64,000 nt of DNA from an uncultured Candidatus Saccharibacteria bacterium (GCA_963543945.1 CAUUCN010000001.1:1118-65117); one strand, 5' to 3'. Counted from the first letter of the stretch, positions 24,577 to 51,300 are shown. Translations and numbers: made by a program. The notes: generated by a model not told the origin, from the letters alone.

Positions 24577-24600
24577 GCTATTTATTATATAAAAAGGCCA

Positions 24601-24627
24601 GAAAAAAGGGCCCCATAACGGGACCCA
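24601..24627 (-). terminator. Intrinsic terminator closing the 26160..24667 operon
   Basis: GGGTCCC...GGGGCCC hairpin plus TTTTTT on the minus strand. Confidence 0.65.
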
Positions 24628-24666
24628 TTTTTGACATTTGTGGGGTTAAAGTGCGTGTAATTTAAT

Positions 24667-25269
24667 TTAAGTTGAAGTTTCGACTGCGGTTTCCGAGAAT
24701 GGCACCGAATCTTTGAGTTTAGTATTTCTCTCTTTGAAGTAATGTTTTACAAATGGAATCAGATGATCCTTCATAAGCTTGAAGTGTAATTCGTGATCAG
24801 CTTCCGTATATTGCGTAAAGTTCATCCGAAATAGCCGGTCAGCATCTTCATATTCCTCCTGAGTAAGAAATTTCTGCTCTAAGGCTAATTTAAAACCATA
24901 TGAACTAAAATATTCTCTACTGATAGATACTTTTTGGTCAAGATTATAGTCGCGTCTAAAATGTATGAGACGACTAAGCAAAGCGGCTTGGTGTTTGAAA
25001 TCCTTATTGCCGAGCTTAGTTAATCCAGTCAGACTAAAGGGGCCGAGCAGGATTTTGGTATGAAGATTGCGAATCGTGCAGCCAGTATGACTGCGGACGC
25101 GTTTACTAAAACTAATCAAATCCTTGTCTGGGTGATACTCCATCTTGATGACCTCCCATTCCTGGATGGCTTCATCGTAAGTATCAGCAACAGATGAAGC
25201 AATGAGACAGCGCTGATATTCCGCAAAAGCCTCATCAAACGGCATCTTCTTAATACGATGGATAAACAT
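24667..25269 (-). CDS. Hypothetical protein (second gene of the A1 operon)
   Basis: 200-aa ORF, 3 nt downstream of 25273..26160; no family recognised. Confidence 0.6.
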   Translation of the reverse strand: MFIHRIKKMPFDEAFAEYQRCLIASSVADTYDEAIQEWEVIKMEYHPDKDLISFSKRVRSHTGCTIRNLHTKILLGPFSLTGLTKLGNKDFKHQAALLSRLIHFRRDYNLDQKVSISREYFSSYGFKLALEQKFLTQEEYEDADRLFRMNFTQYTEADHELHFKLMKDHLIPFVKHYFKERNTKLKDSVPFSETAVETST

Positions 25270-25272
25270 TAA

Positions 25273-26160
25273 TTACATCACCTCCTTCATCGGACTTTTG
25301 TAATACTGGTGAACGAAATCAGACAGGTTTTTGAATTCGTAAGTCTTAGATGCTGATTCAAAGGCGGGCGTTAACTCTATAAAATTGGTAATCATGTAGA
25401 GTTGCTCGTCAAAATCAGGTGTTCGAAATACTTCTTTTGGTAGTACCTGTATAATAGAATCAAGTGGTGGCAGTTGATAATGCTCATCTTCTCGCATAGC
25501 GCGCAAAGCTTTATTGATCATCTCGTGTACTTCACTTGATCGAATTTCGAGTGCCCGGGCAATTTGATTAATTTTCCAGGGTTCATGAATGTCGATACCA
25601 AAAAATAGATCAAGACAATTGAAAAAATCTTCTGGGAAGCGTTTTAAAACTTCCATGACGCGATTGACTTCACGGTCAGAAAGTACGACAAAGTTTTCGT
25701 AAGCTTGATTACTACTGAACAAGGCATCTTTACTGCAGATTAGCTGGCTGGCTTCTGATAGATCATGATAAACCATCTGATAGAGCTTATGCACCGCAAA
25801 GGTGTCTTGAGTATTGGCTGGAGTGAGGCCTTTACGAATGTATCCCTCATCTAGCAAGACCTGCCAGAAACTGCGACGCCATTTAGCATGTTTTTTGCTA
25901 GGAGAAAGTTCATTATAAAAAACCTCTCTAGCCTGTAAAACTAAGACTTCACCAGGTATTTTGGCTTCTTCGTGTGCACGAATTACGTGGCTTAAAAGAC
26001 AATTTTCGTAACTCACGGTGGTGATGCCATATTCGCAGCCGGGTTGATCACGAGACTGACATTCGTCAGCCCAGTGAATGGTGTAGCGGCCAAGCTCTGG
26101 TAAAAGCTCGGCTAGATTACTCTGATTTACTTGCTTACAAACTTGTTCACTAATTAGCAT
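25273..26160 (-). CDS. Family A1: protein with sigma70 region-4-like HTH
   Basis: VLSDREVNRVMEVL...LFFGIDIHEPWKINQIARALEIRSSEVHEMINKALRAMRE resembles sigma70 region 4; EGYIRKG block shared with A3 and A4. Confidence 0.65.
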   Translation of the reverse strand: MLISEQVCKQVNQSNLAELLPELGRYTIHWADECQSRDQPGCEYGITTVSYENCLLSHVIRAHEEAKIPGEVLVLQAREVFYNELSPSKKHAKWRRSFWQVLLDEGYIRKGLTPANTQDTFAVHKLYQMVYHDLSEASQLICSKDALFSSNQAYENFVVLSDREVNRVMEVLKRFPEDFFNCLDLFFGIDIHEPWKINQIARALEIRSSEVHEMINKALRAMREDEHYQLPPLDSIIQVLPKEVFRTPDFDEQLYMITNFIELTPAFESASKTYEFKNLSDFVHQYYKSPMKEVM

Positions 26161-26255
26161 AAAAAATCCCCCTCTTTTTTAAGTTTTCAGTTACCCACAA
26201 ATTGTCAAAAAACGATTTAATTCAGAGAAATCAAAAAATGAACTAAATCTATATA

Positions 26256-26284
26256 ATTCTACCATAAAAAGTATAAAATGTCAA
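26256..26284 (-). promoter_or_regulatory. Sigma70-type promoter TTGACA-17-TAGAAT (TGg extended) for the A1 operon
   Basis: Minus-strand read: TTGACAttttatactttttatggTAGAAT. Confidence 0.65.
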
Positions 26285-26329
26285 AAAAGGTATGGACAAA
26301 TAATATGAGTTATGTTATTATAATGCCAG

Positions 26330-26764
26330 CGCTAGACGAGCTCTTTTATAAACAGGAATGGGAACTTAACCAAGGTTAAGGACGCCTCGCAAGCTGAATT
26401 AACCCAAATACTTATTTTAGCGTCAAGTCACACACTTTGGAGAAGAAGTACATACACTTCGACCTGAAAGACAGATCGAAACGCTAGTAGGCGGAAGCCT
26501 GTGTGAACTCACAGATTTTCGTTGAGAGATTAAGTAGATCTGCTCTAGATGGCACGTCGTTGGTCGAGTGTTTTGAGCTACGTAGCGCAAAAAATAACCG
26601 TATAATAGTTTTTGCCTAAAAAGTAACCCGTTCCCATTCCCTGTTTGCTCTACACCTTACCGTACAGGTAGTACGGAGCCCACCGCTCGCTTAGTAGCGG
26701 AACGTAACTTACCTTCTTGATCACTTCTATGGTCAAGGCTCCCGGCATTGTCGGGAGTTTTTTA
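26330..26764 (+). ncRNA. Candidate novel structured RNA (~435 nt), class unknown
   Basis: Sits in a 700-nt stretch with no ORF of 60 aa or more. TATAAT at 26319-26324 and terminator CTCCCG..CGGGAG plus T7 at 26739-26764. Long-range complements 26350-26365/26630-26646 and 26329-26343/26575-26588, plus at least six local hairpins including a GGAA tetraloop. Confidence 0.55.
26739..26764 (+). terminator. Intrinsic terminator ending the candidate RNA
   Basis: CTCCCG-gcattgt-CGGGAG followed by TTTTTTT. Confidence 0.75.
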
Positions 26765-26891
26765 TTGGCGAGAAATAACGCTTGAGGATGTAAAAATAAC
26801 AGGGGTGTGATAGAATGAGGCTAGAAAGTTAGCTTTGGTTAAAGTACATTGAAAATTAGTGCTTAGATTTATCTCATTGGGGGGTGAAAAA

Positions 26892-27734
26892 ATGAAAGAT
26901 AATGATAAAAATAAGAGAAAAGAATTAGCGGCGAAACAGAAGTTTCATGAAGATATGGTGCTGGGATCGAAATTTATCCAGAACTGGTATTTGTTCCCGA
27001 CAGTGCCAGCGGATGGGGTGGAGTATGCGTATGACGAATTTTTAAGGAGCGTTGCCTTATTTTTACATAGAAGGACCATGGCTTTAGAAATTCAGGATTT
27101 AGGAATTTCCCTATTTGGCGCATCGCGTTACCCATGTTTTGATAATATCTTAGAGCTTGGGCAGCCGGGTTTTTACGGAGTGATTGATAATGTGGCGCGA
27201 ATCGAGAAGCTCACTATAGAAGAGAACAAAGCTTTTGTTGGTAAAATGCGGAAACAGCATCCTATCTATAAAGTAAAAAAATCGGAGCTGGTCTATAAAA
27301 TCGCGGCAGCTAGCGGTGAATTTTATGTAGGTTTGAGCGCCGTAAATCCATCATTTGCTCTGTTATTGAATAAAAAAATTGAGCAAAATAAGAAAGCCAA
27401 CTCAGTCTTAGATAACCTAAATTTAAATCGCATGATACTGGAACGAGAAATCTTTTCAGCGATGAACTTCATGGATCACTATGGTGATATGCGGGGATAT
27501 TATGATGGGGGTGAGGATGATTTTTTCGAGGACGACGAGGATCTCGAGAGGCCCGATGGTGAAGTGAAAGATAAACCAGATAATTTGGGCAGATCTAATA
27601 TTGACGGTCAGAAGCCGACGACATTGGAGATGGATGACTCGAAAAAGAAAGATATCAATCCAGATGGCTCTAAGAAAAATGATAAGCCAAAAGGCAAACC
27701 TAAGGATGGTAAAAAGCGAAAAAAGAAACCATAA
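26892..27734 (+). CDS. Family C1 hypothetical protein with acidic then Lys-rich C-terminal tail
   Basis: Start at ATG 26892 (GGGGGTGA Shine-Dalgarno); IEKL...SELVYKIAAASGEFYVGLSAVNPSF aligns with 27864..28391. Confidence 0.65.
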   Translation: MKDNDKNKRKELAAKQKFHEDMVLGSKFIQNWYLFPTVPADGVEYAYDEFLRSVALFLHRRTMALEIQDLGISLFGASRYPCFDNILELGQPGFYGVIDNVARIEKLTIEENKAFVGKMRKQHPIYKVKKSELVYKIAAASGEFYVGLSAVNPSFALLLNKKIEQNKKANSVLDNLNLNRMILEREIFSAMNFMDHYGDMRGYYDGGEDDFFEDDEDLERPDGEVKDKPDNLGRSNIDGQKPTTLEMDDSKKKDINPDGSKKNDKPKGKPKDGKKRKKKP

Positions 27735-27863
27735 TCTAAGCATTAATGAGAATCCCAGCTTCAACGGCTGGGATTTTTTCATTAAATGTGGTATAATATA
27801 AAGGTTAAGTTTTAAAGTACATTTAGTTTTAGTCGATGACACACGACAGAAAGGTGGGGATAT

Positions 27864-28391
27864 ATGTCGAAAAGACGCGAACGTGAGAAGGCTCAAGAAC
27901 TTCGTGCTGCAGCAAATTTGCGAATTCGCCGGGATTATTCCCTGGTGAGTCGGTGGAGTTTTGAATTTATGGAACCTCATACGGCGATAGATCAGTTTGC
28001 CTTGCTTAAGATGTTCAATGCATTTTACTACGGACATCTGCCGAAATTCGATTTTGAGGAAGAAATTCGCTTGCGCGGAATAAAATCCGATGATGTAAGA
28101 ATTCGCTTGCGTGGAATAGATTCCGATGATGCAAGGAGGCCGAGTGAAATCTTAAATATTCAGTCGATTGAGAAGCTTGATTTGCCGCTTATGAGCAAAG
28201 AGGAGCTGCTGAATATTTTCCGACCGGAAAACTGGAAGGAGATGCAAGAAACTATCGGTGATAGTGAGATTTATCTGGTAACCTCGAAAATGGATAAGTA
28301 TTATCTGATTTCGACGGACGCCAAGCCGATTTTTAAAGATCGGCTGGACCAAATTCATCAAGGCGCCACACTCGCCACATTGGACGAGTAA
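27864..28391 (+). CDS. Family C2 hypothetical protein
   Basis: AGGTGGGGA Shine-Dalgarno; IEKL...SEIYLVTSKMDKYYLISTDAKPIF aligns with C1; contains an in-frame 36-nt duplication. Confidence 0.65.
   Translation: MSKRREREKAQELRAAANLRIRRDYSLVSRWSFEFMEPHTAIDQFALLKMFNAFYYGHLPKFDFEEEIRLRGIKSDDVRIRLRGIDSDDARRPSEILNIQSIEKLDLPLMSKEELLNIFRPENWKEMQETIGDSEIYLVTSKMDKYYLISTDAKPIFKDRLDQIHQGATLATLDE
28065..28136. repeat. In-frame 36-nt tandem duplication (IRLRGI.SDD. x2)
   Basis: attcgcttgcgcggaataaaatccgatgatgtaaga / attcgcttgcgtggaatagattccgatgatgcaagg. Confidence 0.9.
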
Positions 28392-28520
28392 ATATATATA
28401 CTGGCGTAAACGTTGTGGGTGTAGAGTAGCTTGGGTAGGTGACCCGTCTGGCGCTAGATAGAGCGACCGGGGTGACCCGTATCTAGTGTCAGCGAGTCAT
28501 CGTCTAAGTTTTTTCTACGA

Positions 28521-28551
28521 AGAGTTCCTAAAGGATGAGGGGCTCTTTTTT
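28521..28551 (+). terminator. Intrinsic terminator of the C1-C2 transcript
   Basis: AGAGTTCCT/AGGGGCTCT stem (two G-U pairs) followed by TTTTTT. Confidence 0.6.
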
Positions 28552-28567
28552 ATTCTAAATTTGGCAC

Positions 28568-28597
28568 TAAAAAGCCCCTAGATAGGGGCTAGATTTT
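28568..28597. terminator. Bidirectional hairpin terminator
   Basis: AGCCCCTA/TAGGGGCT perfect arms flanked by an A-run and a T-run; overlaps the A2 stop codon. Confidence 0.6.
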
Positions 28598-29257
28598 CGT
28601 TAGATAAGGTTGGATTTTTTTGAGCGCGGACTTGAGGTGGCGATCAGTCTGAGTGAGAAGTAAACCTTCATTGACTGCGGTTTCACGCAAATTATGAATG
28701 TTATCACCTTGCAAGCCGAAGCTAAAATTGACGACGCGATACTCACGTTTGGTCAACTCACGCTGTAAAACCCGCTGAATGTTTTCGAGGTGCTTGAGTT
28801 CTTTCTGACTTCTCTCGAGATCAATACAAATATCTTCCTCATAGAGCTGATTCCAGTCGTGGACGGTGAGAATTTTGGCGCGATCGGTGAGTTGATAATT
28901 ATGAGCCTTTCTGGTGATTCTGGGGTCACGATATTCCAAAATTAAAGGTTCATAGTCGTCGCCGTAAACCGTACGATAGAGATAATACATGCCGATGATT
29001 CTGGAATCGATGTTTCGACAAATTAAGTGATTGTATTCAAAAATTTCCATACAGATCTTGAGCGAATGCGGAATGTTCCGAATGACTCCGGGATGATATT
29101 GCTCCATGTAATAGAGGTAGCGGCAATCCCAGATCAAATGCTCTACGGTTTCATAATTGCGTTCGACATAATTTTTAACATTACCATCAACTAGATGATA
29201 ATAGCCGAGCTGGCTTAAACTGTCGACTTTCCAAGCTTTACTAACTTCATTTTTCAT
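28589..29257 (-). CDS. Family A2: HhH (alpha-CTD-like) plus sigma70 region-4-like protein
   Basis: N-terminal LSQLGYYHLVDGNVKNYVERNYETVEHLIW; C-terminal REYRVVNFSFGLQGDNIHNLRETAVNEGLLLTQTDRHLKSALKKIQ; GGAGGGG Shine-Dalgarno. Confidence 0.7.
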   Translation of the reverse strand: MKNEVSKAWKVDSLSQLGYYHLVDGNVKNYVERNYETVEHLIWDCRYLYYMEQYHPGVIRNIPHSLKICMEIFEYNHLICRNIDSRIIGMYYLYRTVYGDDYEPLILEYRDPRITRKAHNYQLTDRAKILTVHDWNQLYEEDICIDLERSQKELKHLENIQRVLQRELTKREYRVVNFSFGLQGDNIHNLRETAVNEGLLLTQTDRHLKSALKKIQPYLTKI

Positions 29258-29318
29258 TGTCCCCTCCTAAAAAATGTGATGTGAATTAAAGGTACGATAC
29301 GGCGAGGCCGATAAAATA

Positions 29319-29346
29319 ATTATAAACTAAATAATGAGTTTGTCAA
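29319..29346 (-). promoter_or_regulatory. Sigma70-type promoter TTGACA-16-TATAAT for A2
   Basis: Its -35 box is one arm of the inverted repeat TTTGTCAAT-n7-ATTGACAAA shared with the divergent promoter. Confidence 0.6.
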
Positions 29347-29355
29347 TGTTTTAGA

Positions 29356-29384
29356 TTGACAAAATGGGTTAAATATTATAGAAT
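29356..29384 (+). promoter_or_regulatory. Sigma70-type promoter TTGACA-17-TAGAAT for 29467..29976
   Basis: TTGACAaaatgggttaaatattaTAGAAT. Confidence 0.65.
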
Positions 29385-29398
29385 AACAGAGTAGTCAG

Positions 29399-29445
29399 TC
29401 GTAACTGAATAGGTTCTTTAATTTTCTAAGACGTTACGATTTTTT
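29399..29445 (+). promoter_or_regulatory. Terminator-like hairpin in the 5' leader (possible attenuator)
   Basis: TCGTAAC...GTTACGA stem followed by TTTTTT, 20 nt before the Shine-Dalgarno. Confidence 0.4.
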
Positions 29446-29466
29446 CTGTTTGATGGAGGTAGAAAG

Positions 29467-29976
29467 ATGCGAAATGAGGGGTTAAGTAGTGTAATGCCGT
29501 TTACAAACCGAAAATTGGTCGACAAGGTGATTCGCGATGAGGCGATTATCTATGACGTTTGGCGCTTGACGGTGCCAGTTGGCGAAGGCAGAGATGAACG
29601 GCTAAAAAAAGCCGTCAATGCTATGGGGGACTTAAAATTTCAGAAAGCTGAAACGAAAATTTTTTTGCCAGGGGTAATGCTCCAGGGGTATCCTTTAAGA
29701 AATCTGGAAGATTCCAAAGACAAAGCTTTAGGAGGTCCCGCTGTAATGCTGGAATTAGATCTCTTGATGCGAATTGATATTTCGGAAAATGCCAAGAAGT
29801 ATATTTTGAATCGTTTCTTCTATAGGGAGACACGAGATCAATATATGCAAGGTAATGTTTACCTGGGATTCACGAAGGAGAGCAGGATGATTCTGCTGTT
29901 TGACGGAATGATGCATCCTGAATTTGCGGAGGCCGTGGATGATACGGTCGATATGGACTGGGATGAATTGAAGTAA
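29467..29976 (+). CDS. Family C3 (distant) hypothetical protein
   Basis: GGAGGT Shine-Dalgarno; NVYLGFTKESRMILLFDGMMHPEF weakly parallels the C1/C2 C-terminal block. Confidence 0.6.
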   Translation: MRNEGLSSVMPFTNRKLVDKVIRDEAIIYDVWRLTVPVGEGRDERLKKAVNAMGDLKFQKAETKIFLPGVMLQGYPLRNLEDSKDKALGGPAVMLELDLLMRIDISENAKKYILNRFFYRETRDQYMQGNVYLGFTKESRMILLFDGMMHPEFAEAVDDTVDMDWDELK

Positions 29977-29982
29977 CGCATG

Positions 29983-30021
29983 AAAAAAAATAACCCCTCG
30001 TAATGAGGGGTTTATTTTTTT
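29983..30021. terminator. Bidirectional hairpin terminator
   Basis: ACCCCTC-gtaat-GAGGGGT flanked by A8 and T7. Confidence 0.75.
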
Positions 30022-30038
30022 GGAACCAGGTTTTCAGA

Positions 30039-30686
30039 TTAGATTGTGTAAATAATTTTACTAAGTTCAATTTTCTTCAAGATCTCCTTCTCCTGCTTTT
30101 TAGCCTCTGGAATGGTTAGTTTAAATTCTGCAGCGGTTTGCGCTAGGGTGTGAGTCCGGTGTTTATTGAAGCCAAAGCGATAGTCGAAATACTTCATTTC
30201 AGCCGCGGACAGATAGGTGCGAAGATTGGAGCGGAAAGTTTTGAGGGATTTTTTATAAAGAAGCACGTCATTTTCGTAAATTTTATTCCATTCCAGACAG
30301 CTTTGATCGTCTGGGCGGTTCGTTAAACGAAAACGATTGGATTTCTTACAAAATTCCGGTAAAAAACATTCCAGAATGACCGGTTCGTACTTATTGCCGA
30401 GTAACACACGTTTAAGATATTTAAGACCGAAGGAATCGGCGACAAAATCAGTACGGATATAACCTGCAGTATTTAAAGCACTGATGATTTCTGCGAAAAC
30501 TTTCGGGCGATAGGCTTTTAAAGTTTCTGGGTGATACTGCATCATATAGTACAGAAAACGTACGTGCCAAACCAATTGATCCATGGAGAAATAATTTTTC
30601 TCCACGTAACGTTCGGCGCGCTTACTAAGTCCGAGTCCGGAAACGGATTTCAGTGTAGACGCAGGTTTACATTTAGGTTTCTTCAT
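30039..30686 (-). CDS. Family A3: HhH (alpha-CTD-like) plus sigma70 region-4-like protein
   Basis: Start ATG 30686 (GGAGGT Shine-Dalgarno); VSGLGLSKRAERYVEKNYFSMDQLVW; AEMKYFDYRFGFNKHRTHTLAQTAAEFKLTIPEAKKQEKEILKKIE. Confidence 0.7.
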   Translation of the reverse strand: MKKPKCKPASTLKSVSGLGLSKRAERYVEKNYFSMDQLVWHVRFLYYMMQYHPETLKAYRPKVFAEIISALNTAGYIRTDFVADSFGLKYLKRVLLGNKYEPVILECFLPEFCKKSNRFRLTNRPDDQSCLEWNKIYENDVLLYKKSLKTFRSNLRTYLSAAEMKYFDYRFGFNKHRTHTLAQTAAEFKLTIPEAKKQEKEILKKIELSKIIYTI

Positions 30687-30720
30687 AGGCATTACCTCCA
30701 TGAGTGAATCTCGGATGAGA

Positions 30721-31194
30721 TTAGATGAAATGACGATTAATGTTCGGATATTGAAGTCTAGTGGCTAAATAATAACCTCGGGTGAGACTGAGCTTATTAA
30801 ATTTAGCCATATCCAGTAGCATATTGGACATATCATCACTGTAGTGATCGGCATAAAAATAATATTTATGCTGGTTTGTCGTGGTGGCACAGATTAATTC
30901 ATGCTCGACGCCACGACAATACTCTTTGGCTACGCGCTCAAAATGCGTGATGAGGCTAGTGAAAATTTCTTCACCATCCTTGAATCTAGGGTCGCCATAA
31001 ATCAAACCACCCAGGAGACATTTGCCGGAAATAGTTATTTCATGATCTTTAAGATGATGATAAAACCGGCTAAAGTCGATCATGACCTCCTGGCGATTAG
31101 GGTAACCATCCTTTTCTTCGAAAAAGAGTTGCCAATTTTTTAAAATGGCGATACTTTTTGCATGCGTATCGTGATGTATCAGGGGTGGTTTCAT
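30721..31194 (-). CDS. Hypothetical protein (first gene of the A3 operon)
   Basis: Start ATG 31194 (GAGGAGGA Shine-Dalgarno); 157 aa; no family recognised. Confidence 0.6.
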   Translation of the reverse strand: MKPPLIHHDTHAKSIAILKNWQLFFEEKDGYPNRQEVMIDFSRFYHHLKDHEITISGKCLLGGLIYGDPRFKDGEEIFTSLITHFERVAKEYCRGVEHELICATTTNQHKYYFYADHYSDDMSNMLLDMAKFNKLSLTRGYYLATRLQYPNINRHFI

Positions 31195-31278
31195 AATATC
31201 CTCCTCACAAGAAATGCACCTTAAAACATGGTAGGCAGGGTTCCAAAATTTTAAGGTGCGAGTAAAAACTACCTTTAT

Positions 31279-31307
31279 ATTATACAATGCGATAGCTTCT
31301 ATGTCAA
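31279..31307 (-). promoter_or_regulatory. Sigma70-type promoter TTGACA-17-TATAAT
   Basis: Minus-strand read: TTGACAtagaagctatcgcattgTATAAT. Confidence 0.65.
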
Positions 31308-31476
31308 TAAATAACAGGGGTGGAAGTGTTGAAATCGGGCGGAACTAACTAGGTTTCCTGTTCGGTTTTTGTCCCTTGACTTTCTTTTATTTTTATGTCA
31401 AAATATGAATATTGATTCAATAGTGAATCATGCTGGTTGTCCCGAGGGGGATAGTTCTTTGAAAGGAGATATCGGT

Positions 31477-31932
31477 ATGGGTATCAATGAAAATGGCAAT
31501 GAAAACAAAGGCTTGTCGGTCGACGAAAATTGCGACGCGAGGGTCTATCGGATTAAAGATGGACCATATTTATCGGAGCTTTTAGAAGGGTTTAAATTAG
31601 CTCATGATGAAGACTTGCGACCGCGCATTGAATTCCAGGTGGAAAATGGAAAATTCCAGGCGAATAAATGTTATGCGCAGGGAGAAGAGCTTCTTCTGGT
31701 GAAGGATTTTCAAATCCTAGAACTGAAATATTCTGGCCTTTCTTATGATTACGTAAAAGTAATTGGAAGATGTTTGGCTGACTTATCTAGTGCTTGCGAG
31801 GAAAAAGCGGTTTATACTAAGTATAAATTCGATGCGAACTATGATGTCAAAAGACGCACGGGTAGTATTAGCTTTACGAAATATGGCTTAATACGAAACC
31901 GTAATTTAATTAGTAATGCTGGAAATGAATAA
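31477..31932 (+). CDS. Family D1 hypothetical protein
   Basis: Start ATG 31477 (AAGGAG Shine-Dalgarno); IEFQV..., LSYDYVKVIGRC and KFDANYDVKRRTGSISF align with 37549..37929. Confidence 0.65.
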   Translation: MGINENGNENKGLSVDENCDARVYRIKDGPYLSELLEGFKLAHDEDLRPRIEFQVENGKFQANKCYAQGEELLLVKDFQILELKYSGLSYDYVKVIGRCLADLSSACEEKAVYTKYKFDANYDVKRRTGSISFTKYGLIRNRNLISNAGNE

Positions 31933-32133: not shown

Positions 32134-32141
32134 CTGAAGAT

Positions 32142-44045: not shown

Positions 44046-44170
44046 AGATTCACCTAACCTTTCGTAATGTGTGCGGGTGACTGTTTGGTTAAAATTCCTC
44101 AAATTTTAAGGTGCAATAAATTCACCTCTCTCTCGAGAGGTGAAAGTTGTGTAGCAAATTTTTTCGTAAT

Positions 44171-44791
44171 CTAAATATCTTTTACCTCGGGTTCACGATA
44201 CCAGATGATGCCAGATTTTTCAGAGACAGGGATTTCTAAACTTTGCTCTTTAAAATCCTTATAGGTCGAAACGAACCATTTAGTAGGTGATCCAGTGAAA
44301 GTAATAGAAGTGGCAGTAAGCCATGCTAAAAGACCGAACTCATCTGCGTCGGGCATTACACCGATAAAGCGCGTCTTATCACATATGTCTTGGTATGACG
44401 GCCGGTCGGCCTCTTGGATTTTTTGCCAACCGTTGTATTCGAGGATTTCACCCCAGTGTTTGGCATCGAAGCGATGTTCTCCGGGTTTGCGCGGCCCTGG
44501 TTTAGGTAATTTAGGTGAACTACCGCAGTGTTTTTTCATCATCCAGGCCACATAACTAGTACTACGCCGAATGACGAAGCCATTAGAATCAGTAATTAGG
44601 GTGTAAAAATTACCGTCGGATTCCGGCCATTTGGCAAAATCGGGATCAGCGTAAGGATATTCCTCGGCGCCAGTCTCCATGATGAAACGATAGATGTGAC
44701 GATAGATTATGCGAATAATCCGTTTAGGCTGCCAAGCAGCGCAAGATTCTCTTGCGAAAAAATTTGCTACTTTAATCTTAAATGTACTCAT
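44171..44791 (-). CDS. Hypothetical protein
   Basis: 206-aa ORF with GAAGGAGGGG Shine-Dalgarno; no confident family. Confidence 0.6.
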   Translation of the reverse strand: MSTFKIKVANFFARESCAAWQPKRIIRIIYRHIYRFIMETGAEEYPYADPDFAKWPESDGNFYTLITDSNGFVIRRSTSYVAWMMKKHCGSSPKLPKPGPRKPGEHRFDAKHWGEILEYNGWQKIQEADRPSYQDICDKTRFIGVMPDADEFGLLAWLTATSITFTGSPTKWFVSTYKDFKEQSLEIPVSEKSGIIWYREPEVKDI

Positions 44792-44946: not shown

Positions 44947-45603
44947 ATGAATTTAAGGGAAGCTAAAACCTATATCTATATTGATGTTAGTAACATCCGT
45001 CACGCCTGCCTTTGGAGCTGCGGTTTTGTTCTTGATTTTATTAAATTATATAACTATCTTAAAGAGAAATATCCGAATGTTCAGGAAATTCGTTATTATG
45101 AAGGGATATCTTCTAGTGATAGTAAGAAAATGGAACATTTTCGATTTTTGAGTGAAAAAGTTGGATATAAGATTTGCTCACTTTCTAGAAAAAGCTATAT
45201 TGAACCACCAAAGTACGAAAAATATAGATGCGCGAATTGCGGGTCTCTAAATAATATAAAAGTACTTTCGAAAAATGTGAAATTAAAATCGAATATTGAT
45301 GTTTATTTGACATCGGATCTGCTGGAGTGTGTTGCAAGATCAAAGGACCCAATTAATATCATAATCCTTTCTTGTGATGGAGATTATGCCGAAGCAATTA
45401 AGGCAACTCTTCGATTGAGCCCCGATTCTTGTGTAACGGTTTTAGCTACACCAGTAACAGAAATAAATAATTGCCTATCAGTTAGATTAAAACAACTTAG
45501 TCGTGAGCTTGATCGAAGTAATTATAAGTTGTCAAATATAAATAATATTAGAGATTATGTTGCTCAGTCTTTTGAGGGCGGTAAGAATAAATTGAAAAAA
45601 TAA
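44947..45603 (+). CDS. NYN/LabA-like domain protein with an inserted zinc-ribbon-like CxxC pair
   Basis: IYIDVSNIRHA ... IIILSCDGDYAEAIK (NYN acidic motifs); YRCANCGS; TATATT-9 nt-ATG start. Confidence 0.65.
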   Translation: MNLREAKTYIYIDVSNIRHACLWSCGFVLDFIKLYNYLKEKYPNVQEIRYYEGISSSDSKKMEHFRFLSEKVGYKICSLSRKSYIEPPKYEKYRCANCGSLNNIKVLSKNVKLKSNIDVYLTSDLLECVARSKDPINIIILSCDGDYAEAIKATLRLSPDSCVTVLATPVTEINNCLSVRLKQLSRELDRSNYKLSNINNIRDYVAQSFEGGKNKLKK

Positions 45604-45814
45604 TTAAGGATATTTTTAGAATCGAGCAACCCGCCATTTCTGGCGGGTTCTCATGAAGATAGCACCGAAGTGGTATCTCCGACGTTGGAGTTTCTTACTC
45701 CGATGTCTTTATTCTAGCATATATTGAAGAAAAACTCAATCCGAGTTCTAGTTGCATTTTTATAGTGTTATACTCGACGTAAAGCGGAGTAGAGGCTTAT
45801 GATATAATAAAAAT

Positions 45815-46354
45815 ATGGCTCATACTTTGTGTGCTAATAAACATAGTATGTGGAACGGCGATGGAAAAGTTTGCGTCGATGCTTATTCTGTTGAACTTAT
45901 TAAAAAAATATCAGAAGAAAACCCTGATAAGAAATTTGGCGATAAAGATAACGACTATTCCCTATTGGTTGATATTTATGATTCTTGCCCAGAAAAAGAA
46001 CCGGATATATGGCGATGCACGAAATGTCTAAGTCTAGTGATTTTCTTTTCTGATAATGAATATGGAATAGAAAAATGCTATGGTTATGTAGTTGATGAAA
46101 CGGAAAATTTGCCAGATAAAACGTTATATTCAAAATGGGAGGAGTATTTTGTTGAAAATAACGACGCCTTCGAAGAGCATCATGAGAATCTAAAAAATCA
46201 AGGTCTAACGCCATACGAATCATTTGAGAGATTCCATAAGGAATCAGATAAGTTAAACTTCGCATATGTAAGTGACGATAAGCTGAAAATTGTTGTAACA
46301 GATAATAGTTATAATCCAATTCGCCTTTATAAATTAAAATGGAAGACAGAATAA
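45815..46354 (+). CDS. Hypothetical Cys/His-containing protein
   Basis: 179-aa ORF; TATAAT-6 nt-ATG; C..H..C and RCTKC motifs. Confidence 0.6.
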   Translation: MAHTLCANKHSMWNGDGKVCVDAYSVELIKKISEENPDKKFGDKDNDYSLLVDIYDSCPEKEPDIWRCTKCLSLVIFFSDNEYGIEKCYGYVVDETENLPDKTLYSKWEEYFVENNDAFEEHHENLKNQGLTPYESFERFHKESDKLNFAYVSDDKLKIVVTDNSYNPIRLYKLKWKTE

Positions 46355-46511: not shown

Positions 46512-46545
46512 GATTTAAGATAATTTTATGTGATATAGTGAAAAT

Positions 46546-46598
46546 ATCGAAGTTCTTGCACGGCGCCGAAGGTACCTACCGCAGGAGCTTCTTTTTTT
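46546..46598 (+). ncRNA. Candidate small RNA, copy 2
   Basis: TGaTATAGT at 46531-46539; GAAGTTCTTGC...GCAGGAGCTTC stem plus T7. Conserved AATATCGAAGT, TGCACGG and CCTACCGCAGG blocks; the inner 11 nt differ from copy 1. Confidence 0.5.
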
Positions 46599-46759: not shown

Positions 46760-47221
46760 ATGGAAAACGCTCCACGAATTAATGGTGAAAAAACGATGAA
46801 TATGGCTACACAACCCAATAGCCCAGATCGAACTGCTAATAAAACCTCAATCGTGAACCGACCATATATCAGAAAAGAAACCATCAATACCGTCGTTGAT
46901 CGTGATGGAAATGATAGCATGAGGATGGAAGAAATGCCAGCTGGAAAATCAGAAGAGCAAATTGAGAGTGAAAGAGTTGGTCGTGTTAAAATTAATGACG
47001 AAATGCAGGCTAGAATGAAGGTGTACTGGGCTGATAAACGAGCAAATGAGCAAAAACAACGTGAAGAACAAGAACGAGTTCGAAAAGAAAAGGCGATGAC
47101 TGAAGCCGAGCATCAAAGGATTCTGCAAGAACAAAGAGAAAAAGTTCAAAATGCATATCATCGAAATACTGAAAATGAACTTAATGAAGAGCAAGATAAT
47201 GAAATGGAAATGGAGATGTAG
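46760..47221 (+). CDS. Highly charged coiled-coil-like hypothetical protein
   Basis: 153-aa ORF; AAAAGGAA Shine-Dalgarno; E/K/R/Q-rich. Confidence 0.6.
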   Translation: MENAPRINGEKTMNMATQPNSPDRTANKTSIVNRPYIRKETINTVVDRDGNDSMRMEEMPAGKSEEQIESERVGRVKINDEMQARMKVYWADKRANEQKQREEQERVRKEKAMTEAEHQRILQEQREKVQNAYHRNTENELNEEQDNEMEMEM

Positions 47222-47224
47222 AAT

Positions 47225-47551
47225 ATGAAAACATTTCGATTGTCTTCAAATGAAATCAAAATTTTAACGGATATGAAGGGTGGCTGTATTGCATCAGATA
47301 GAATTACTGTGGATGGGCAAAAAGTTGGCTACGCTTATCGAGAAGATCCAGATAAGAATTTTTCAAATGATAGTGGATGGAGATTTCTTGCTGGGGATGA
47401 AAGCGAGGAATATCTGAATAATCCTAACAATTTTGACGTATTTGAAATAAGCACTATCTGTAATTACGATCCGAATATTCTAGATATTTTAGACGGGAAA
47501 ATTGGCGAGTCTTATATTAGAGATAGTAATACATTTAAATTAGATTTTTAA
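47225..47551 (+). CDS. DUF2185 / Imm33-like immunity-type protein
   Basis: NDSGWRFLAGDESEEYLNNPNNFDVFEISTICNYDPNILDIL matches my recollection of the DUF2185 signature (DSGW.f..G.E). Confidence 0.6.
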   Translation: MKTFRLSSNEIKILTDMKGGCIASDRITVDGQKVGYAYREDPDKNFSNDSGWRFLAGDESEEYLNNPNNFDVFEISTICNYDPNILDILDGKIGESYIRDSNTFKLDF

Positions 47552-47588
47552 CCTCAGTTCCTAAATATGGTATAATTTGAACTTTTTA

Positions 47589-47759
47589 ATGGAAACAACA
47601 CTGGCGGTATATTGTATTATAGTTGTTTTTTACAAAATAAGCATGTATTATATTGACACTTTTAAGCATATGTTCTATAATATGAGTTATACGCTTGAGA
47701 AAGGCCTAGCCGATCTGAAAGCTTATATGAAAGAACAATTCAGAAATGAAAAGTTCTAG
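47589..47759 (+). CDS. Possible small hydrophobic protein (56 aa); doubtful
   Basis: TATAAT 12 nt upstream; one predicted TM segment (TLAVYCIIVVFYKISMYY). It overlaps the promoter of the next unit, so it may be non-coding. Confidence 0.25.
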   Translation: METTLAVYCIIVVFYKISMYYIDTFKHMFYNMSYTLEKGLADLKAYMKEQFRNEKF

Positions 47760-47934: not shown

Positions 47935-48267
47935 ATGAATATAATTAATTTGACGCCCCACACTGTGAACATCTGCACTGAGGATGGAGATATCGAGTGC
48001 TCGTTCAAATCTGAAGGTGTCGCTCGCGCAAGCCAGGTGGCAGTACCTTTCGGTGACGTCAATGGAATCGAGTTGGTCGAGATGCGTTTCGGCCCTACCG
48101 TTGATCTTCCTGACCCTGAGGCAGGTACCGTACTTATTGTATCTGCGATCACCGCAAGTGCCGCTAAGGCGGAAGGTCGTTCTACTGATGACCTGGTGCT
48201 TACAGCGGATACTGTCCGTGACAAGGATGGCCGTATCGTCGGCTGCAGGCGCTTCGCCCGCGTATAA
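47935..48267 (+). CDS. Family E2 hypothetical protein (high-GC copy)
   Basis: Start ATG 47935 (GGAGAGGAG Shine-Dalgarno); MNIINLTPHTV...TVLIVSAITASAAKAEGRSTDDLVLTADTVRDKDGRIVGCRRFA aligns with 38006..38347. Confidence 0.7.
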   Translation: MNIINLTPHTVNICTEDGDIECSFKSEGVARASQVAVPFGDVNGIELVEMRFGPTVDLPDPEAGTVLIVSAITASAAKAEGRSTDDLVLTADTVRDKDGRIVGCRRFARV

Positions 48268-48361: not shown

Positions 48362-49747
48362 ATGAAAGACCCCAATGTGGTAAAAAATGAATCCGAAAAA
48401 GACTCTGATTATGATGCCGATTGGGGTGCTGGTTGGGGTAAAGTAGCGGCGTTAGCTAACAATCCAAATCTTAGTGAAGCATCATCTAAGGAGAATCCAG
48501 AAGATTCCGATGAATATGAGGAATCTGATGACTATGATAACGAAGACGACTACGACGACTATGACGATTACGATAGTGAGGATGATGGTTATGATCGTGA
48601 TGAGGATGCTTATGGTGATTATGATGACGGCTATGATAACTATGATGGCGAAGACGATGATTATGATCATGGCGAGGATGCGTATGGTGATTATGACGAC
48701 GATTATGATGACTATGACGATGATGATGATTACAATAGCTACTATAATGGCGACAACGAGCGCCTAGAGGTAAAAGAAGACGAATTAAAAATTCGAGAAA
48801 TACCTCTACCGGAAAATATCTTAAAAAGATATGATTTTATCGAGAAGTTACCTAGTGGTATTGCTATAATGGGTGGTGTGGCAAGGAGTGTAGCACGCGA
48901 GATTTTGACTGGTGAAAAAGAGCCAATCAGGGATATTGATCTTGTGGAAATTACTGATAATGAAGACGAAAGCACAGTCGACCCAGAGCTTCTCGATGAA
49001 TTAGCACAAACTTATATGCCAGATGATTATGCATTTGGCCATGGAATCGGACTAGACACCTTAGAAGATTATTTCTCTACACGCGACTTCACTATTAATG
49101 AATGCCTTATTAAGGACGGTAAGCTTCTCGTGAGTGAGTTAGCGGAAAATGATTTTAAGGAAAATATTATCAGACCAACTTATTATGAAGCCCCATATGA
49201 CGGAGATAAACTGTCGGGACGGCTTTTCTTGAAAGCGATACTGATGCAGACCGTGATATCGCAAATTTCTGAATCCATACCGTTACTTGAGGATGTTCAT
49301 GTGAATTTTCAATATATTGGCGATTTTGATACGGCAGTATTTCTTAATAAGGCGATGAGTCGCGGGGTAGAAACAGCGGTAAAATTTACAGAGAATCTTG
49401 CTGAATGGGGTGTAGTATACCCAGAATTTGCTGGTAGGCCTATGGCGCTTGCGAAAGATTTACTTACTAATGCATACAATTTTAAATTTAGACCATCTAC
49501 AGATGAAAGATTTCTAGAACCAGAAGAAGGTCGCGACATGAGCGGATTTTTTGTGCCAAAAGCTATGCAAGAATACCATTCATCCGATCCAGCAATAGCC
49601 CGAGCTATAGATGAGTATGATAGTGGCCCAGATTACAGTAATGATGATAATGATGGTGATAATAACGGTGAGCCAGTTTCGGGATATTATACACAGAAAG
49701 ATTACGATGAGATTAATTCGAGTGTGGATAGTCGTGACATAGAATAA
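48362..49747 (+). CDS. Class-II (CCA-adding / poly(A) polymerase-type) nucleotidyltransferase-like protein with N-terminal Asp/Tyr-rich tract
   Basis: Start ATG 48362; the longer ORF-track ORF reads through the upstream gene. GGVARSVAREILTGEKEPIRDIDL and EDYFSTRDFTINECL head-domain motifs; aa 46-132 are almost only D/E/Y/G. Confidence 0.65.
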   Translation: MKDPNVVKNESEKDSDYDADWGAGWGKVAALANNPNLSEASSKENPEDSDEYEESDDYDNEDDYDDYDDYDSEDDGYDRDEDAYGDYDDGYDNYDGEDDDYDHGEDAYGDYDDDYDDYDDDDDYNSYYNGDNERLEVKEDELKIREIPLPENILKRYDFIEKLPSGIAIMGGVARSVAREILTGEKEPIRDIDLVEITDNEDESTVDPELLDELAQTYMPDDYAFGHGIGLDTLEDYFSTRDFTINECLIKDGKLLVSELAENDFKENIIRPTYYEAPYDGDKLSGRLFLKAILMQTVISQISESIPLLEDVHVNFQYIGDFDTAVFLNKAMSRGVETAVKFTENLAEWGVVYPEFAGRPMALAKDLLTNAYNFKFRPSTDERFLEPEEGRDMSGFFVPKAMQEYHSSDPAIARAIDEYDSGPDYSNDDNDGDNNGEPVSGYYTQKDYDEINSSVDSRDIE

Positions 49748-49950
49748 AATCTAAAATTATAGAACTTGTTCTAGTATAATATGTACAAGTAGATCTCCTA
49801 TTTACGTTTGTTGTTATTCTTAAGTATGGATCTACCTATTTTTATTGACAAGATTCCGCCAATATTTGTTACAAAGGTCCTGGATCTTAACGTTGCTTAT
49901 GAAATAAGCCCCGCCGAAGCGAGAGCTTTAATCAAAGAGCATAGGCTGTT

Positions 49951-50808
49951 TTACAAACTGCTTATTTTTTCGATCATCTCTTCTATAGAACGGCGGCTAA
50001 AATTGCGGAACTTGGTTAAATCAGCATTCCTTGCCTCCTCAATTGTATTGATTCCGGCGTGTCTCAGACAGCTATAAGTGCGAGTAGATAAGTTGAGCAC
50101 TTCAATTGGACCGTCGACAGGTGCTGTCCTTCCGTATTTTTGTTCATAATACTCGAGAATTATCTTTGCAACAGATAACCCTCCCTCTGTTGCCAATAAA
50201 CGCGACTGAAGCTCTAATCTGCTCACCATTAGCAATCCCAATTGTCGTTTTATTCTCGGACGCCTAAGTTTTATTTTTGCTTTTGCCAGAATTTGCTTAA
50301 TGTATCCTCTGGTAGAGCAATATTTCTGAGCAATCTCTTCAAGAGACATACGCTCGCAGCCTAATCCGTAGTGAAGCTTTAAAATTGCGTTTTCCTTCTC
50401 AAATAAACTTGAGCAAAGGATACTATAAAGGCAATTTTTCTGATCATCCGTCATTGGATTTTCCCAAAAATGGTTGATTAATTCGGGGCGATTATTAATG
50501 GCAAAATCGACCAGAAAGTACTCTTCGTTGGGAATCTTCGTGCGCAAATCAAACTTGTTGATTAATTCGGAGCGATTATCATTGGCAAAAATATCAACCA
50601 AAAAATATTCCTCGTTGGAAAGCTTCGTGCGTAAACCATGCTTTTCCAATACTTCTTTGATTTCCTTAGCTTTTTTGGGACCGATTCCACGGATACCAGT
50701 GAGATTATCATAGCATGAACAAAGTGCAAGAGATTCGAGCGAATCAAACAGTGTAGTTGCAATAATTTTCTCGATTGACGGGTTACCTAAAAGATTAAGA
50801 TTCATCAT
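49951..50808 (-). CDS. Family A6: HhH plus internal 28-aa duplication plus sigma70 region-4-like plus alpha-CTD-like protein
   Basis: LTGIRGIGPKKAKEIKEVL; ENAILKLHYGLGCERMSLEEIAQKYCSTRGYIKQILAKAKIKLRR; IEVLNLSTRTYSCLRHAGINTIEEARN...FRNFSRRSIEEMIEKI. Confidence 0.75.
   Translation of the reverse strand: MMNLNLLGNPSIEKIIATTLFDSLESLALCSCYDNLTGIRGIGPKKAKEIKEVLEKHGLRTKLSNEEYFLVDIFANDNRSELINKFDLRTKIPNEEYFLVDFAINNRPELINHFWENPMTDDQKNCLYSILCSSLFEKENAILKLHYGLGCERMSLEEIAQKYCSTRGYIKQILAKAKIKLRRPRIKRQLGLLMVSRLELQSRLLATEGGLSVAKIILEYYEQKYGRTAPVDGPIEVLNLSTRTYSCLRHAGINTIEEARNADLTKFRNFSRRSIEEMIEKISSL
50473..50643. repeat. In-frame tandem duplication (84 + 87 nt) inside A6
   Basis: gttgattaattcgg(g/a)gcgattat... 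repeated with period 84 nt; encodes LRTK(L/I).NEEYFLVD...N(D)NR.ELIN.F twice. Confidence 0.85.
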
Positions 50809-50872
50809 GGTTTTTCCTCCTTTAAAAGGTGACCAAATTTTTTAACTACTTTAGATTTAACCTAACTTTTTA

Positions 50873-50901
50873 ATTACAACATAAACGCTTTAAAATGTCA
50901 A
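50873..50901 (-). promoter_or_regulatory. Sigma70-type promoter TTGACA-17-TGTAAT for A6
   Basis: Exact 17-nt spacer; the upstream ~75 nt are homologous to 52861..52937. Confidence 0.6.
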
Positions 50902-50971
50902 TATGTCCGTAATAACTCAGAACCTTTGCAACATAACACGGTAAGATTATTGCCATCAAAAAAGTAGATTC
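50895..50971. repeat. Promoter-upstream module, copy 1 (copy 2 at 52861..52937)
   Basis: atgtcaat(a/c)tgtccgt.a....cag(a/g)acctttgcaa.a.aa..gg.aa.a..ttgcca..aaaaa.tag.ta shared by both copies. Confidence 0.7.
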
Positions 50972-51123
50972 TATACTTGAATTAACATCACTTAATAAAA
51001 GGAGAATCTATCTATAAATATTATACCAGAACAAATCCTGAATTTTTAAAACCCCTGCGGGTAAATGTGAAAAGCCTCCTAGTATGCTTTGCATATAGTC
51101 GTCTGATTCGTCGAAATAAAAAA

Positions 51124-51220
51124 GTATCGCTATGCTTCTTATTTTAATTTTTAAAACCTAAAATTATAGAACAAGTTCTAAATTTTAAATTTTAAAAATA
51201 AAAATAGAGTTCTTCGAACT
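51124..51220. repeat. ~97-nt AT-rich intergenic repeat, copy 1 (copy 2 at 56059..56155; 28-nt partial copy at 49746..49773)
   Basis: cttattttaatttttaaaac.taaaattatagaa.aa.ttctaaattttaa....ttaaaaataaaaatagagttc; contains palindrome TAGAAC-nn-GTTCTA and a terminator hairpin. Confidence 0.8.
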
Positions 51221-51271
51221 AGATATTTCTCTCATGAAGCACGCCTGGCTTCGCGGCTACTCCATTCGTCG

Positions 51272-51300
51272 AAAATAAAAAATAAACCCCTGTGGGTTTT
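51272..51300 (-). terminator. Intrinsic terminator after tRNA-Thr(GGU)
   Basis: AAACCC-acag-GGGTTT plus a T-run on the minus strand. Confidence 0.7.

Follow-up and report, generated by a model that had tools for sequence, protein, structure and literature searches.

A promoter-dense block of sigma-70 region 4, alpha-CTD, Crn4-family and immunity-type genes at a conserved chromosomal position in Saccharibacteria

Crn4 (Unk01) is a broad-spectrum ring nuclease acting on cyclic oligoadenylate (cOA); in Crn4b the residues H17 and R103 are essential, their mutation abolishing activity, and the protein is found on phages and plasmids too, where it is presumed to be an anti-CRISPR (Chi et al. 2025, PMC12830947). 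Actinomycete hosts, in turn, attack Saccharibacteria with Esx effectors (PMC13622651). Here we describe a block of about 26 kb from an uncultured Candidatus Saccharibacteria bacterium that holds homologues of Crn4 together with several immunity-type genes and a group of proteins built from RNA polymerase-related domains. It lies at positions 24600-51300 of a stretch of 64,000 nucleotides (GCA_963543945.1 CAUUCN010000001.1:1118-65117), which as a whole we call the window. A gene for a Y-family (DinB-like) polymerase (23248-24576, minus strand) forms the left border and the tRNA-Thr(GGT)/tRNA-Tyr(GTA) pair (51321-51527, minus strand) the right. An earlier note on this DNA, made from the sequence alone, had counted about 33 genes here, none of them housekeeping, and had sorted many of them into paralog families A to E; we keep these letters and name genes by their first coordinate. 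Our map holds 31 open reading frames (ORFs), for none of which did scans against Pfam, NCBIfam, PHROGs and PADLOC suggest a housekeeping function, as the earlier note had said. The literature we searched contained no description of this block.

We consider it reasonably likely that the block is a vertically inherited, clade-specific plasticity zone of an oral (Nanosynbacter-like, TM7) Saccharibacteria epibiont, carrying regulators together with counter-defence and immunity genes. As in other plasticity zones and defence-type islands, the content is variable between conserved anchors, lies beside tRNA genes and is non-housekeeping, with tandem-duplicate paralogs, hypervariable slots and enzymes of defence, immunity and nucleotide-signal degradation. 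Unlike them, the block lacks mobility genes, shows neither a compositional break nor signs of recent transfer, and has one fixed order in the different species of the clade; about half of its genes belong to families rarely seen outside Saccharibacteria, and strong promoters are unusually dense. The block would have grown as a few lineage-specific families duplicated in tandem long ago and diverged, with further genes gained, and would now be kept in fixed order with a few hypervariable slots. Its left two thirds (24.6-42 kb) form an array of one- and two-gene units, each with a strong sigma-70-type promoter and a terminator. On this model the right third (42-51 kb) and one gene at 38 kb would supply enzymes that reverse or quench attack signals.

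We compared the block with homologous regions from different Saccharibacteria assemblies (given L numbers below). The same gene order recurs in more than ten related assemblies, with orthologs mostly 71-99% identical at the protein level. L002, L003 and L007 have the same order from the polymerase to 33666, and L001 and L008 have it in part; it extends to the 621-residue gene (39748) in L081 and to the ADP-ribosylglycohydrolase (ARH) gene in L100, is found also in L098, L102 and L103, and the right end (47.6-59 kb) is kept in L084-L086. On the left the anchors are tRNA-Trp, rpmG and the polymerase, and on the right the tRNA-Thr/tRNA-Tyr pair, a TPR protein, holB and an RluA-family pseudouridine synthase; the tRNA pair has no partial copies elsewhere in the window. 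The polymerase itself is 91-95% identical to homologues in Candidatus Saccharibacteria and Nanosynbacter metagenome-assembled genomes and in the TM7 oral taxon 351 single-cell genome, and family-A orthologs, at 92-99%, are similarly conserved. The block is kept in these close relatives but is not conserved core in all. In L009 the polymerase directly adjoins the ARH gene, and 24.6-42 kb is therefore missing there. In the sister-genus locus L024, the RluA-family gene, holB, the TPR gene, tRNA-Thr, tRNA-Tyr and the polymerase all lie within about 11 kb, with only about 6 kb of unrelated genes from tRNA-Tyr to the polymerase. Relatives keep 49951 beside tRNA-Thr, down to the homologue in L097 (44% protein identity); in the more distant L088-L095 a 49951-type gene sits a few kb from tRNA-Thr among different neighbours, with other A- and D-family members nearby.

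Variation among the relatives shows at particular positions, where some of the partner genes form two allele classes or diverge strongly. Orthologs of 24667 fall into two allele classes (71-72% versus 94-95% identity). The 29467 slot is 75-93% identical in most relatives and is shorter or split in L081/L082, L100/L101 and L001. Copy and length polymorphism affects one slot only, the family-B copy at 33666: orthologs are 75-96% identical, and the gene is truncated here (277 residues), full-length in L100-L103 (373-375 residues, 37-47% identity) and absent in L081. L100 and L101 carry an extra DHH gene, and the near-identical strains L085 and L086 have about 3.8 kb of other DNA in place of the segment with the NYN gene and 45815. 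In relatives the variable locus also houses small-gene families of other kinds, for example a protein of about 120 residues with the motif DWNK(S/A)H that L009 (1543-3148) and L091 (16464-16838) have in common; this points to further island-specific families absent from this window.

A block that adjoins tRNA genes, is partly or wholly absent in L009 and L024, and has phage relatives for some of its genes (phrog_30542/21731, phrog_21101 and the sigma-like phrog_351) could be the remnant of a prophage or integrative element, inserted next to the tRNAs at one time and stripped of integrase and structural genes since; strong-promoter units are also typical of phage early regions. Most of what we found speaks otherwise. 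Scans of the block proteins with Pfam, PHROGs and NCBIfam gave no integrase, recombinase or transposase; capsid, tail, terminase and portal proteins were absent from the 11 PHROG families matched and from the Pfam matches; replication families were likewise unmatched, and no Pfam family of a relaxase, type IV secretion or coupling protein was matched. Megablast against 50,697 phage and 72,556 plasmid records gave no match, and IMG/VR yielded neither family A nor family E. Of tRNA-Thr, tRNA-Tyr and tRNA-Trp, no k-mer of at least 13 nt is repeated at the opposite block edge in the manner of an att site. GC content runs at about 0.35-0.47 across the window and does not shift where the block begins or ends, and GC skew is positive throughout, with only a near-zero dip at about 50-52 kb. 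Since many species-level genomes also share one gene order, the idea of a decayed prophage is poorly supported and in our view improbable. The earlier note, which had recognised no integrase, transposase, capsid, tail or conjugation gene and had concluded that this was no standard prophage or integrative and conjugative element, was right on both counts. Shared synteny and the lack of tRNA-fragment repeats at the edges therefore point to an old, vertically inherited expansion in a conserved synteny gap, not to an element that is active or recently mobile.

The paralogy itself was tested by all-vs-all BLASTP, local jackhmmer and profile-profile hhalign on ortholog alignments. Families B (33666, 35812, 38482; BLASTP 3e-86 and 6e-19, hhalign 100%), D (31477, 37549; BLASTP 1.4e-9, hhalign 97.8%) and E (38006, 47935; BLASTP 6e-10, hhalign 94%) were recovered as originally drawn. 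Family A holds as a set that shares domains but not as one homologous family, being made up of four full-length homologues and two proteins with the C-terminal domain of the RNA polymerase alpha subunit (alpha-CTD). Family C (26892, 27864, 29467) dissolved: none of the three methods related its members, and no pair of them stood among the top 30 hhalign pairs listed, where the lowest probability was 1%. Paralogs are 20-51% identical, in contrast to the mostly 71-99% identity of orthologs, so the duplications must be old.

Each transcription unit had been said to carry its own near-consensus promoter and hairpin terminator, and this claim gained strongly from being counted. Scanning for TTGACA-N16-18-TATAAT with at least 11 of 12 positions matching, we found 15 sigma-70 promoter matches in the block, against 1.1 +/- 1.1 in Markov simulations; 12 of the 15 lie in intergenic DNA, which makes up 21% of the block. 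In all, 13 transcription units are predicted. The density, 0.56 per kb, is seven times that of the left flank (0.08 per kb) and more than twice that of the right flank (0.24 per kb). Terminator-like hairpins number 33 in 24600-44500, where 15.7 +/- 4.8 are expected. Six pairs of genes or units diverge from minus to plus strand (25273/26892, 28589/29467, 30721-30039/31477, 33666/34734, 36920-35812/37549 and 38482/39748), which bears out the described pattern of A or B genes facing plus-strand genes, except that the partner is not always small (345 and 621 residues in two cases). Promoter and leader segments had been called duplicated as well, and there is one clear case, 34510-34571 against 37280-37341, 90% identical over 62 nt. 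The leader copy at 34510-34571 marks a segmental duplication from the DUF1653/35812 unit that gave rise to 33666; a further 264 nt match at 75% in the coding parts. Other leader-type repeats are weaker: 39624-39661 (71%), and 43325-43397 against 46525-46597 (73%).

One duplicated leader, units with their own promoters and terminators, and a B copy that varies in presence or length among relatives are what one would expect if, as the earlier note proposed, a self-duplicating cassette array were actively copying promoter-gene-terminator units. Tandem duplication did build much of the block. However, no near-identical copies exist, paralogs having diverged to the level given above; more than ten related assemblies agree in the order and number of units; neither recombination sites nor a recombinase nor boundary repeats were found around the units; and family C is not a family. 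Active self-duplication is accordingly poorly supported and, by synteny, largely refuted, and we regard it as highly improbable. An integron-like cassette array was considered and rejected also, with units that have their own near-consensus promoters, no shared recombination-site repeat and no integrase.

The two short plus-strand elements at 43325-43397 and 46525-46597 deserve separate mention. By reading, each has an extended -10-like promoter (TGTATAAT and TGATATAGT, respectively) followed by a stable stem-loop and a T-run. They fold alike (-22.5 and -19.8 kcal/mol; z -3.9 and -2.9), one stem pair shows a compensatory change by reading, and the opposite strand folds poorly. A search of Rfam gave nothing at gathering score. 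The elements could encode small RNAs or represent a leader common to both places. A bidirectional hairpin terminator in two copies that are 95% identical (43241-43277 and 43407-43443) brackets the first of these putative small RNAs, between the ARH and HD genes.

The leading group in the array is family A, whose members here are short ones of a large protein family. Its core consists of three full-length homologues on the minus strand, 28589-29257 (222 residues; 12/12 promoter at 29346), 30039-30686 (215 residues) and 32142-32801 (219 residues), which are 28-32% identical to one another and were joined by BLASTP and hhalign. A divergent member of 295 residues, 25273-26160 (minus strand; 11/12 promoter at 26284), has a sigma-region-4-like segment and joins the core only at profile level (hhalign 89-93%, E 3e-7; also jackhmmer). 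Against PDB sequences, all 16 of the hits of the core profile were to sigma-70 region 4 (best E 0.0085). The AlphaFold2 (AF2) model of 30039 (pLDDT 77.8) shows two helical domains with a disordered linker between them; the Foldseek hits of this model in the PDB were almost exclusively sigma factors, and those among viral proteins (BFVD) predominantly so. Its C-terminal domain alone superimposes on sigma domain 4 with a TM score of 0.74 and a root-mean-square deviation of 2.1 A. In both sequence and predicted fold this domain thus resembles that of sigma-70 factors, and the two helical domains, flexible linker and length of about 215 residues recall the ECF sigmas. Family A differs from sigma-70 factors in its weak whole-protein structural matches (E 0.02-0.4, TM score about 0.28 for 30039) and in having no detected region 2, and because of the latter we do not file these proteins as sigma factors.

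The remaining two proteins, 33070-33522 (minus strand, 150 residues; 12/12 promoter at 33606) and 49951-50808 (minus strand, 285 residues; 11/12 promoter at 50901), carry a bona fide alpha-CTD. Pfam RNA_pol_A_CTD is matched above gathering score by both, at 3.7e-13 and 6.6e-16, and 49951 also matches Sigma70_r4 (3.1e-7) and the helix-hairpin-helix family HHH_5 (6e-6). The NCBIfam rpoA models match only C-terminally, over 55-110 residues, and not over the N-terminal domain (alpha-NTD); neither protein is therefore RpoA. The alpha-CTD is all that 33070 and 49951 have in common (BLASTP, Pfam), and 49951 shares only its sigma-region-4 segment with the family-A core (hhalign 61%). The profiles of the core and of the alpha-CTD proteins could not be linked directly (hhalign 0.6%), and the connection runs only through fused relatives. 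Since such relatives have the three modules in one protein, the grouping makes sense as one of shared domains.

HMMER, run without restriction on 1.84 billion representatives, returned 797 relatives of family A at E <= 1e-3 and 101 at E <= 1e-10, and a word-indexed search of 5.8 billion clusters returned only about 30 close ones. We scanned ten relatives against Pfam, seven of which match over most of the profile; RNA_pol_A_CTD was present in five of these seven, Sigma70_r4 (above cut-off) in five, and both in four. At the homologous locus L091, positions 15377-16423 encode a 348-residue fusion of the N-domain, sigma region 4 and the alpha-CTD. Large relatives of 938-1706 residues (P0124, P0138) have an unusual architecture with up to 10-11 tandem sigma-region-4 repeats. 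The source names say only 'hypothetical protein', and just one member carries an organism label, that of Candidatus Saccharibacteria. No paper describing sigma-4 and alpha-CTD fusions, or such proteins in Saccharibacteria, was found in the literature we searched.

These likenesses suggest that the family-A proteins could be transcription regulators that bind DNA, RNA polymerase or both, and that each might control the unrelated gene lying head to head with it. A different role is conceivable. Modules that contact the beta flap, the -35 and UP-element DNA and activators could serve as effectors or decoys aimed at RNA polymerase, re-programming the transcription of the host or of the epibiont itself; sigma-4 and alpha-CTD modules that come without detected sigma region 2 or alpha-NTD, the expansion of the family in a lineage of obligate epibionts and the tandem-repeat relatives would all suit such a role. 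On the other hand, no obvious signal peptide was seen on reading the N-termini (no secretion motif or system was searched for), sigma region 4 is a generic helix-turn-helix that also occurs in ordinary DNA-binding regulators, and there is no experimental hint of it. We give this idea little credence and prefer to see family A as regulators.

The other genes of the left array are as follows. Directly downstream of 25273 and in the same orientation lies 24667-25269 (minus strand, 200 residues), with no family match. The three former C genes, all on the plus strand, are 26892-27734 (280 residues, with a highly charged K/D/E-rich tail), 27864-28391 (175 residues) and 29467-29976 (169 residues; 11/12 promoter at 29356). 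Within 27864 there is an in-frame 36-nt tandem duplication at 28055-28126, 81% identical, which encodes the repeat IRLRGI(K/D)SDD. Upstream of 30039 in a shared unit is 30721-31194 (minus strand, 157 residues; 12/12 promoter at 31307). Family D consists of 31477-31932 (plus strand, 151 residues) and 37549-37929 (plus strand, 126 residues; 11/12 promoter at 37445), the latter being the first gene of a unit that continues with a family-E gene. Family B comprises 33666-34499 (minus strand, 277 residues), a copy without the N-terminal part that is 51% identical to 35812; 35812-36903 (minus strand, 363 residues); and 38482-39573 (minus strand, 363 residues; 11/12 promoter at 39656), 21-22% identical to 35812. 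The AF2 model of 35812 (pLDDT 84.9) is a confident all-alpha helical-repeat fold, for which Foldseek returned only designed or solenoid repeat proteins (E >= 2e-3); a search of family B against PDB sequences gave nothing meaningful, and the 35812 orthologs diverge fast (46-100% identity in 92 database clusters). Upstream of 35812 in the same unit is a DUF1653 protein, 36920-37264 (minus strand, 114 residues; Pfam 1.1e-13, phrog_21101, 11/12 promoter at 37361). The 345-residue product of 34734-35771 (plus strand) has a weak HD-domain signature: its match to Pfam HD_4 (0.0026) lies under the cut-off, and hhalign relates its HD motif to that of 43458 at 53%. Two overlapping plus-strand genes of 621 and 130 residues (39748-42002) close the array; they have no match in Pfam, NCBIfam, PADLOC or the PDB and are kept in relatives (L081, L100).

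For family E the comparison with a described system can be carried to the level of residues. The 110-residue product of 47935-48267 (plus strand) aligns end to end with Crn4b (PDB 9R7B; residues 2-107 versus 9-114, E 2.6e-10) and keeps the catalytic motifs LTPH (Thr/His) and VRD (Arg); it also matches PADLOC Unk_01 (4e-25) and the phage families phrog_30542 (8.6e-20) and phrog_21731. Its paralog 38006-38347 (plus strand, 113 residues) gives a weaker, partial match to 9R7B (E 5e-4) and matches Unk_01 at 1.9e-10. In pairwise alignment it has kept the His but lost the Thr, and VTD stands in place of VRD, so this degenerate copy is probably impaired in catalysis. Judged by sequence, then, we assign family E to the Crn4 cOA ring-nuclease family, with putative activity for 47935 as for Crn4b (PMC12830947). 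Like the Crn4b of phages and plasmids, 47935 is small and stands alone. Unlike in Crn4 systems, there is a second paralog without the catalytic Arg and Thr, and the host of 47935 is a reduced-genome epibiont, the setting being neither a CRISPR locus nor a phage. No type III CRISPR or cOA-activated effector was recognised: neither the block proteins, which were searched with PADLOC, nor twenty ORFs of the flanks gave a cas, CARF or SAVED family, and this is as far as the scan reached in the window and the genome. A perfect 12/12 sigma-70 promoter at 47653, which would drive 47935, lies inside a 60-residue ORF (47577-47759, plus strand); that ORF is only 64-84% identical in strains whose adjacent genes are 97-100% identical, and it is probably not a gene. 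Downstream of 47935 is 48362-49747 (plus strand, 461 residues), which has an Asp/Tyr-rich low-complexity N-terminal region and drew no family from the Pfam and NCBIfam scans; its N-terminal half contains an Asp/Tyr-rich coding repeat at 48388-48745 with a 9-nt period and 17 overlapping copies.

Several neighbours of 47935 can also be placed in families. The ARH gene, 42073-43104 (minus strand; 12/12 promoter at 43235), matches ADP_ribosyl_GH in Pfam at 5.2e-75, and its best NCBIfam model is the Tri1 ADP-ribosylarginine hydrolase (NF041672, 1.9e-60). The next unit, 43458-44791 (minus strand; 12/12 promoter at 44864), starts with a 206-residue protein (44171-44791) and continues with 43458-44102, a stand-alone RelA/SpoT-type HD hydrolase that matches Pfam HD_4 at 1.5e-19 and only the N-terminal part of TIGR00691. 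The co-oriented 44171 has no match in Pfam, PADLOC or the PDB; a toxSAS-type toxin-antitoxin pair with a small alarmone hydrolase was considered and set aside, 44171 not being matched to a RelA/SpoT synthetase toxin in those databases. On the plus strand, 44947-46354 holds an NYN-domain protein (44947-45603; Pfam NYN 5.7e-9, PADLOC NYN) and a 179-residue protein (45815-46354), and 46760-47551 holds a charged, coiled-coil-like protein of 153 residues and, after it, an Imm33 immunity protein (47225-47551), whose Pfam match (2.4e-32) reaches 111 bits where the cut-off is 25.4. Pfam recognised no toxin domain in the 153-residue protein, and we therefore regard this Imm33 as an orphan. The block thus has domain families in common with Tri1-type immunity, small alarmone hydrolases and Imm33 sets, and its genes stand alone without cognate toxins, as in the orphan immunity sets of polymorphic toxin systems. 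It differs from the Tri1, alarmone-hydrolase and Imm33 systems in scoring under the equivalog cut-offs and in having no adjacent toxin or secretion genes, and from immunity arrays in that such genes are too few.

The Crn4b-type nuclease and its degenerate paralog, the Tri1-like ARH, the HD hydrolase, the NYN nuclease-fold protein and the orphan Imm33 could together serve a protective, counter-defence role for an epibiont attached to a hostile host in a dense biofilm, a reading that fits the evidence of Esx attack by the host (PMC13622651). The block had been described as of unknown function, which is only partly true now that family E can be assigned to Crn4, family A to sigma-70 region 4 and much of the right third to hydrolase and immunity families. 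The two findings that the earlier note had named as refuting its reading thus hold by half: some families can be assigned, but the functions that emerged are neither housekeeping nor those of an ordinary phage, and the block is shared by close relatives without being core in all of them.

It is tempting to extend the protective role to the whole block, which would then be a counter-defence and orphan-immunity arsenal directed at toxins of the host or competitors and at signalling-based immunity of the host, much like the anti-defence islands of phages or acquired interbacterial defence clusters; immunity or anti-defence functions would then fall to most of the small unassigned proteins, with the sigma-4 and alpha-CTD proteins as their regulators. 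The presence of Imm33, the Tri1-like ARH, the HD hydrolase and two Crn4-family genes argues for this, as do the presumed anti-CRISPR role of Crn4b on phages and plasmids (PMC12830947), the hypervariable slots and two-class alleles (24667, 29467, 33666/35812) and the Esx attack on these epibionts. Yet searches tied none of families A, B and D, nor any of the three C genes, to a known immunity or anti-defence family, and the block has no recombinase such as acquired interbacterial defence clusters contain. Family-A orthologs, moreover, are well conserved in a manner unlike typical arms-race genes, and no route is known by which a ring nuclease would be delivered into the host. We consider an arsenal of this extent rather unlikely. 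Quite unlikely, in our estimation, is a further version in which the chromosomal arsenal would resemble a phage anti-defence island, with Crn4b, a dead cOA-binding paralog, ARH and an alarmone-type hydrolase set against the immunity and toxins of the actinomycete host, and with the sigma-4/alpha-CTD family acting on the RNA polymerase of the epibiont or of the host and not as ordinary operators.

The plasticity-zone interpretation that we favour has to be weighed against several observations. About half of the block genes have no family assignment: database scans assigned no function to the family-D genes, the three C genes, 24667, 30721, 39748, 41610, 44171, 45815, 46760 or 48362, a relaxed Pfam scan (E <= 1) of ten unassigned block proteins gave only noise, and family D, 39748, 44171, 34734 and 48362 had nothing significant among PDB sequences. 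For family A, Sigma70_r2 had no match in the window proteins or the ten relatives, save in the unrelated multidomain P0138; the N-domain scores only 1-4 bits against the alpha-CTD helix-hairpin-helix; we found no shared operator motif; and regulation by family A is a guess, since the partner genes already have housekeeping-type promoters. On the protective side, the ARH scores 204.5 bits against an equivalog cut-off of 490 for Tri1, which favours membership of ADP_ribosyl_GH at family level only, and among the window ORFs scanned we recognised no toxin, cyclase, CRISPR or CBASS gene with which the ring nuclease, ARH, HD hydrolase or Imm33 could pair.

Other features of the window stand apart from these questions. 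Exact 14-bp palindromes, TAGAACnnGTTCTA, occur at 49760-49773 and 51167-51180, on both sides of 49951-50808, and the sequence upstream of the two is similar (TAAAAYCTAAAATTA). We rejected the palindrome as an operator or terminal repeat, there being no enrichment (5 matches at <= 2 mismatches versus 2.7 expected) and only the downstream copy being kept in the near-identical strains L084-L086. Outside Saccharibacteria the nearest relatives of the polymerase are from Clostridia, at about 54% identity, which suggests an old horizontal acquisition; the overlapping ORF downstream of it (22977-23339, minus strand) is far more variable in close relatives (66-86%) than the polymerase. The housekeeping genes of the flanks (L33, a RarA-like ATPase, holB and the RluA-family pseudouridine synthase) score far under the NCBIfam equivalog cut-offs, as is to be expected in a deep-branching lineage. 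At 2306-5179 (minus strand) a 957-residue protein with PARCEL repeats (Mbov_0838/Listeria lipoprotein-type surface repeats) is probably a surface protein of the epibiont. Rfam called a tRNA at 56261-56333 (minus strand) that ARAGORN missed, and a 21-nt direct repeat (56170-56190 and 56250-56270) overlaps the 3' end of this tRNA, with its second copy at a distance of 80 nt; it could stem from partial duplication of the tRNA or be the remnant of an att-like site.

Saccharibacteria genomes are strongly reduced (one related contig measures 783 kb), so a conserved, heavily promoted block of about 26 kb without housekeeping genes is unlikely to be ballast. The comparison with relatives corrects the earlier reading, in that the block is neither mobile nor self-copying. 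What it offers instead is a large, unannotated family combining sigma-70 region 4 and alpha-CTD modules, possibly a main regulator class of a lineage in which few transcription factors can be recognised, and Crn4-type ring nucleases outside CRISPR loci and phages, including what appears to be a naturally inactivated paralog. The accompanying set of damage-reversal and immunity genes fits the recent evidence that actinomycete hosts attack their epibionts. Together, with the weight mainly on the sigma-4/alpha-CTD family and the epibiont Crn4, these genes may provide a lead on how these parasites cope with their hosts.

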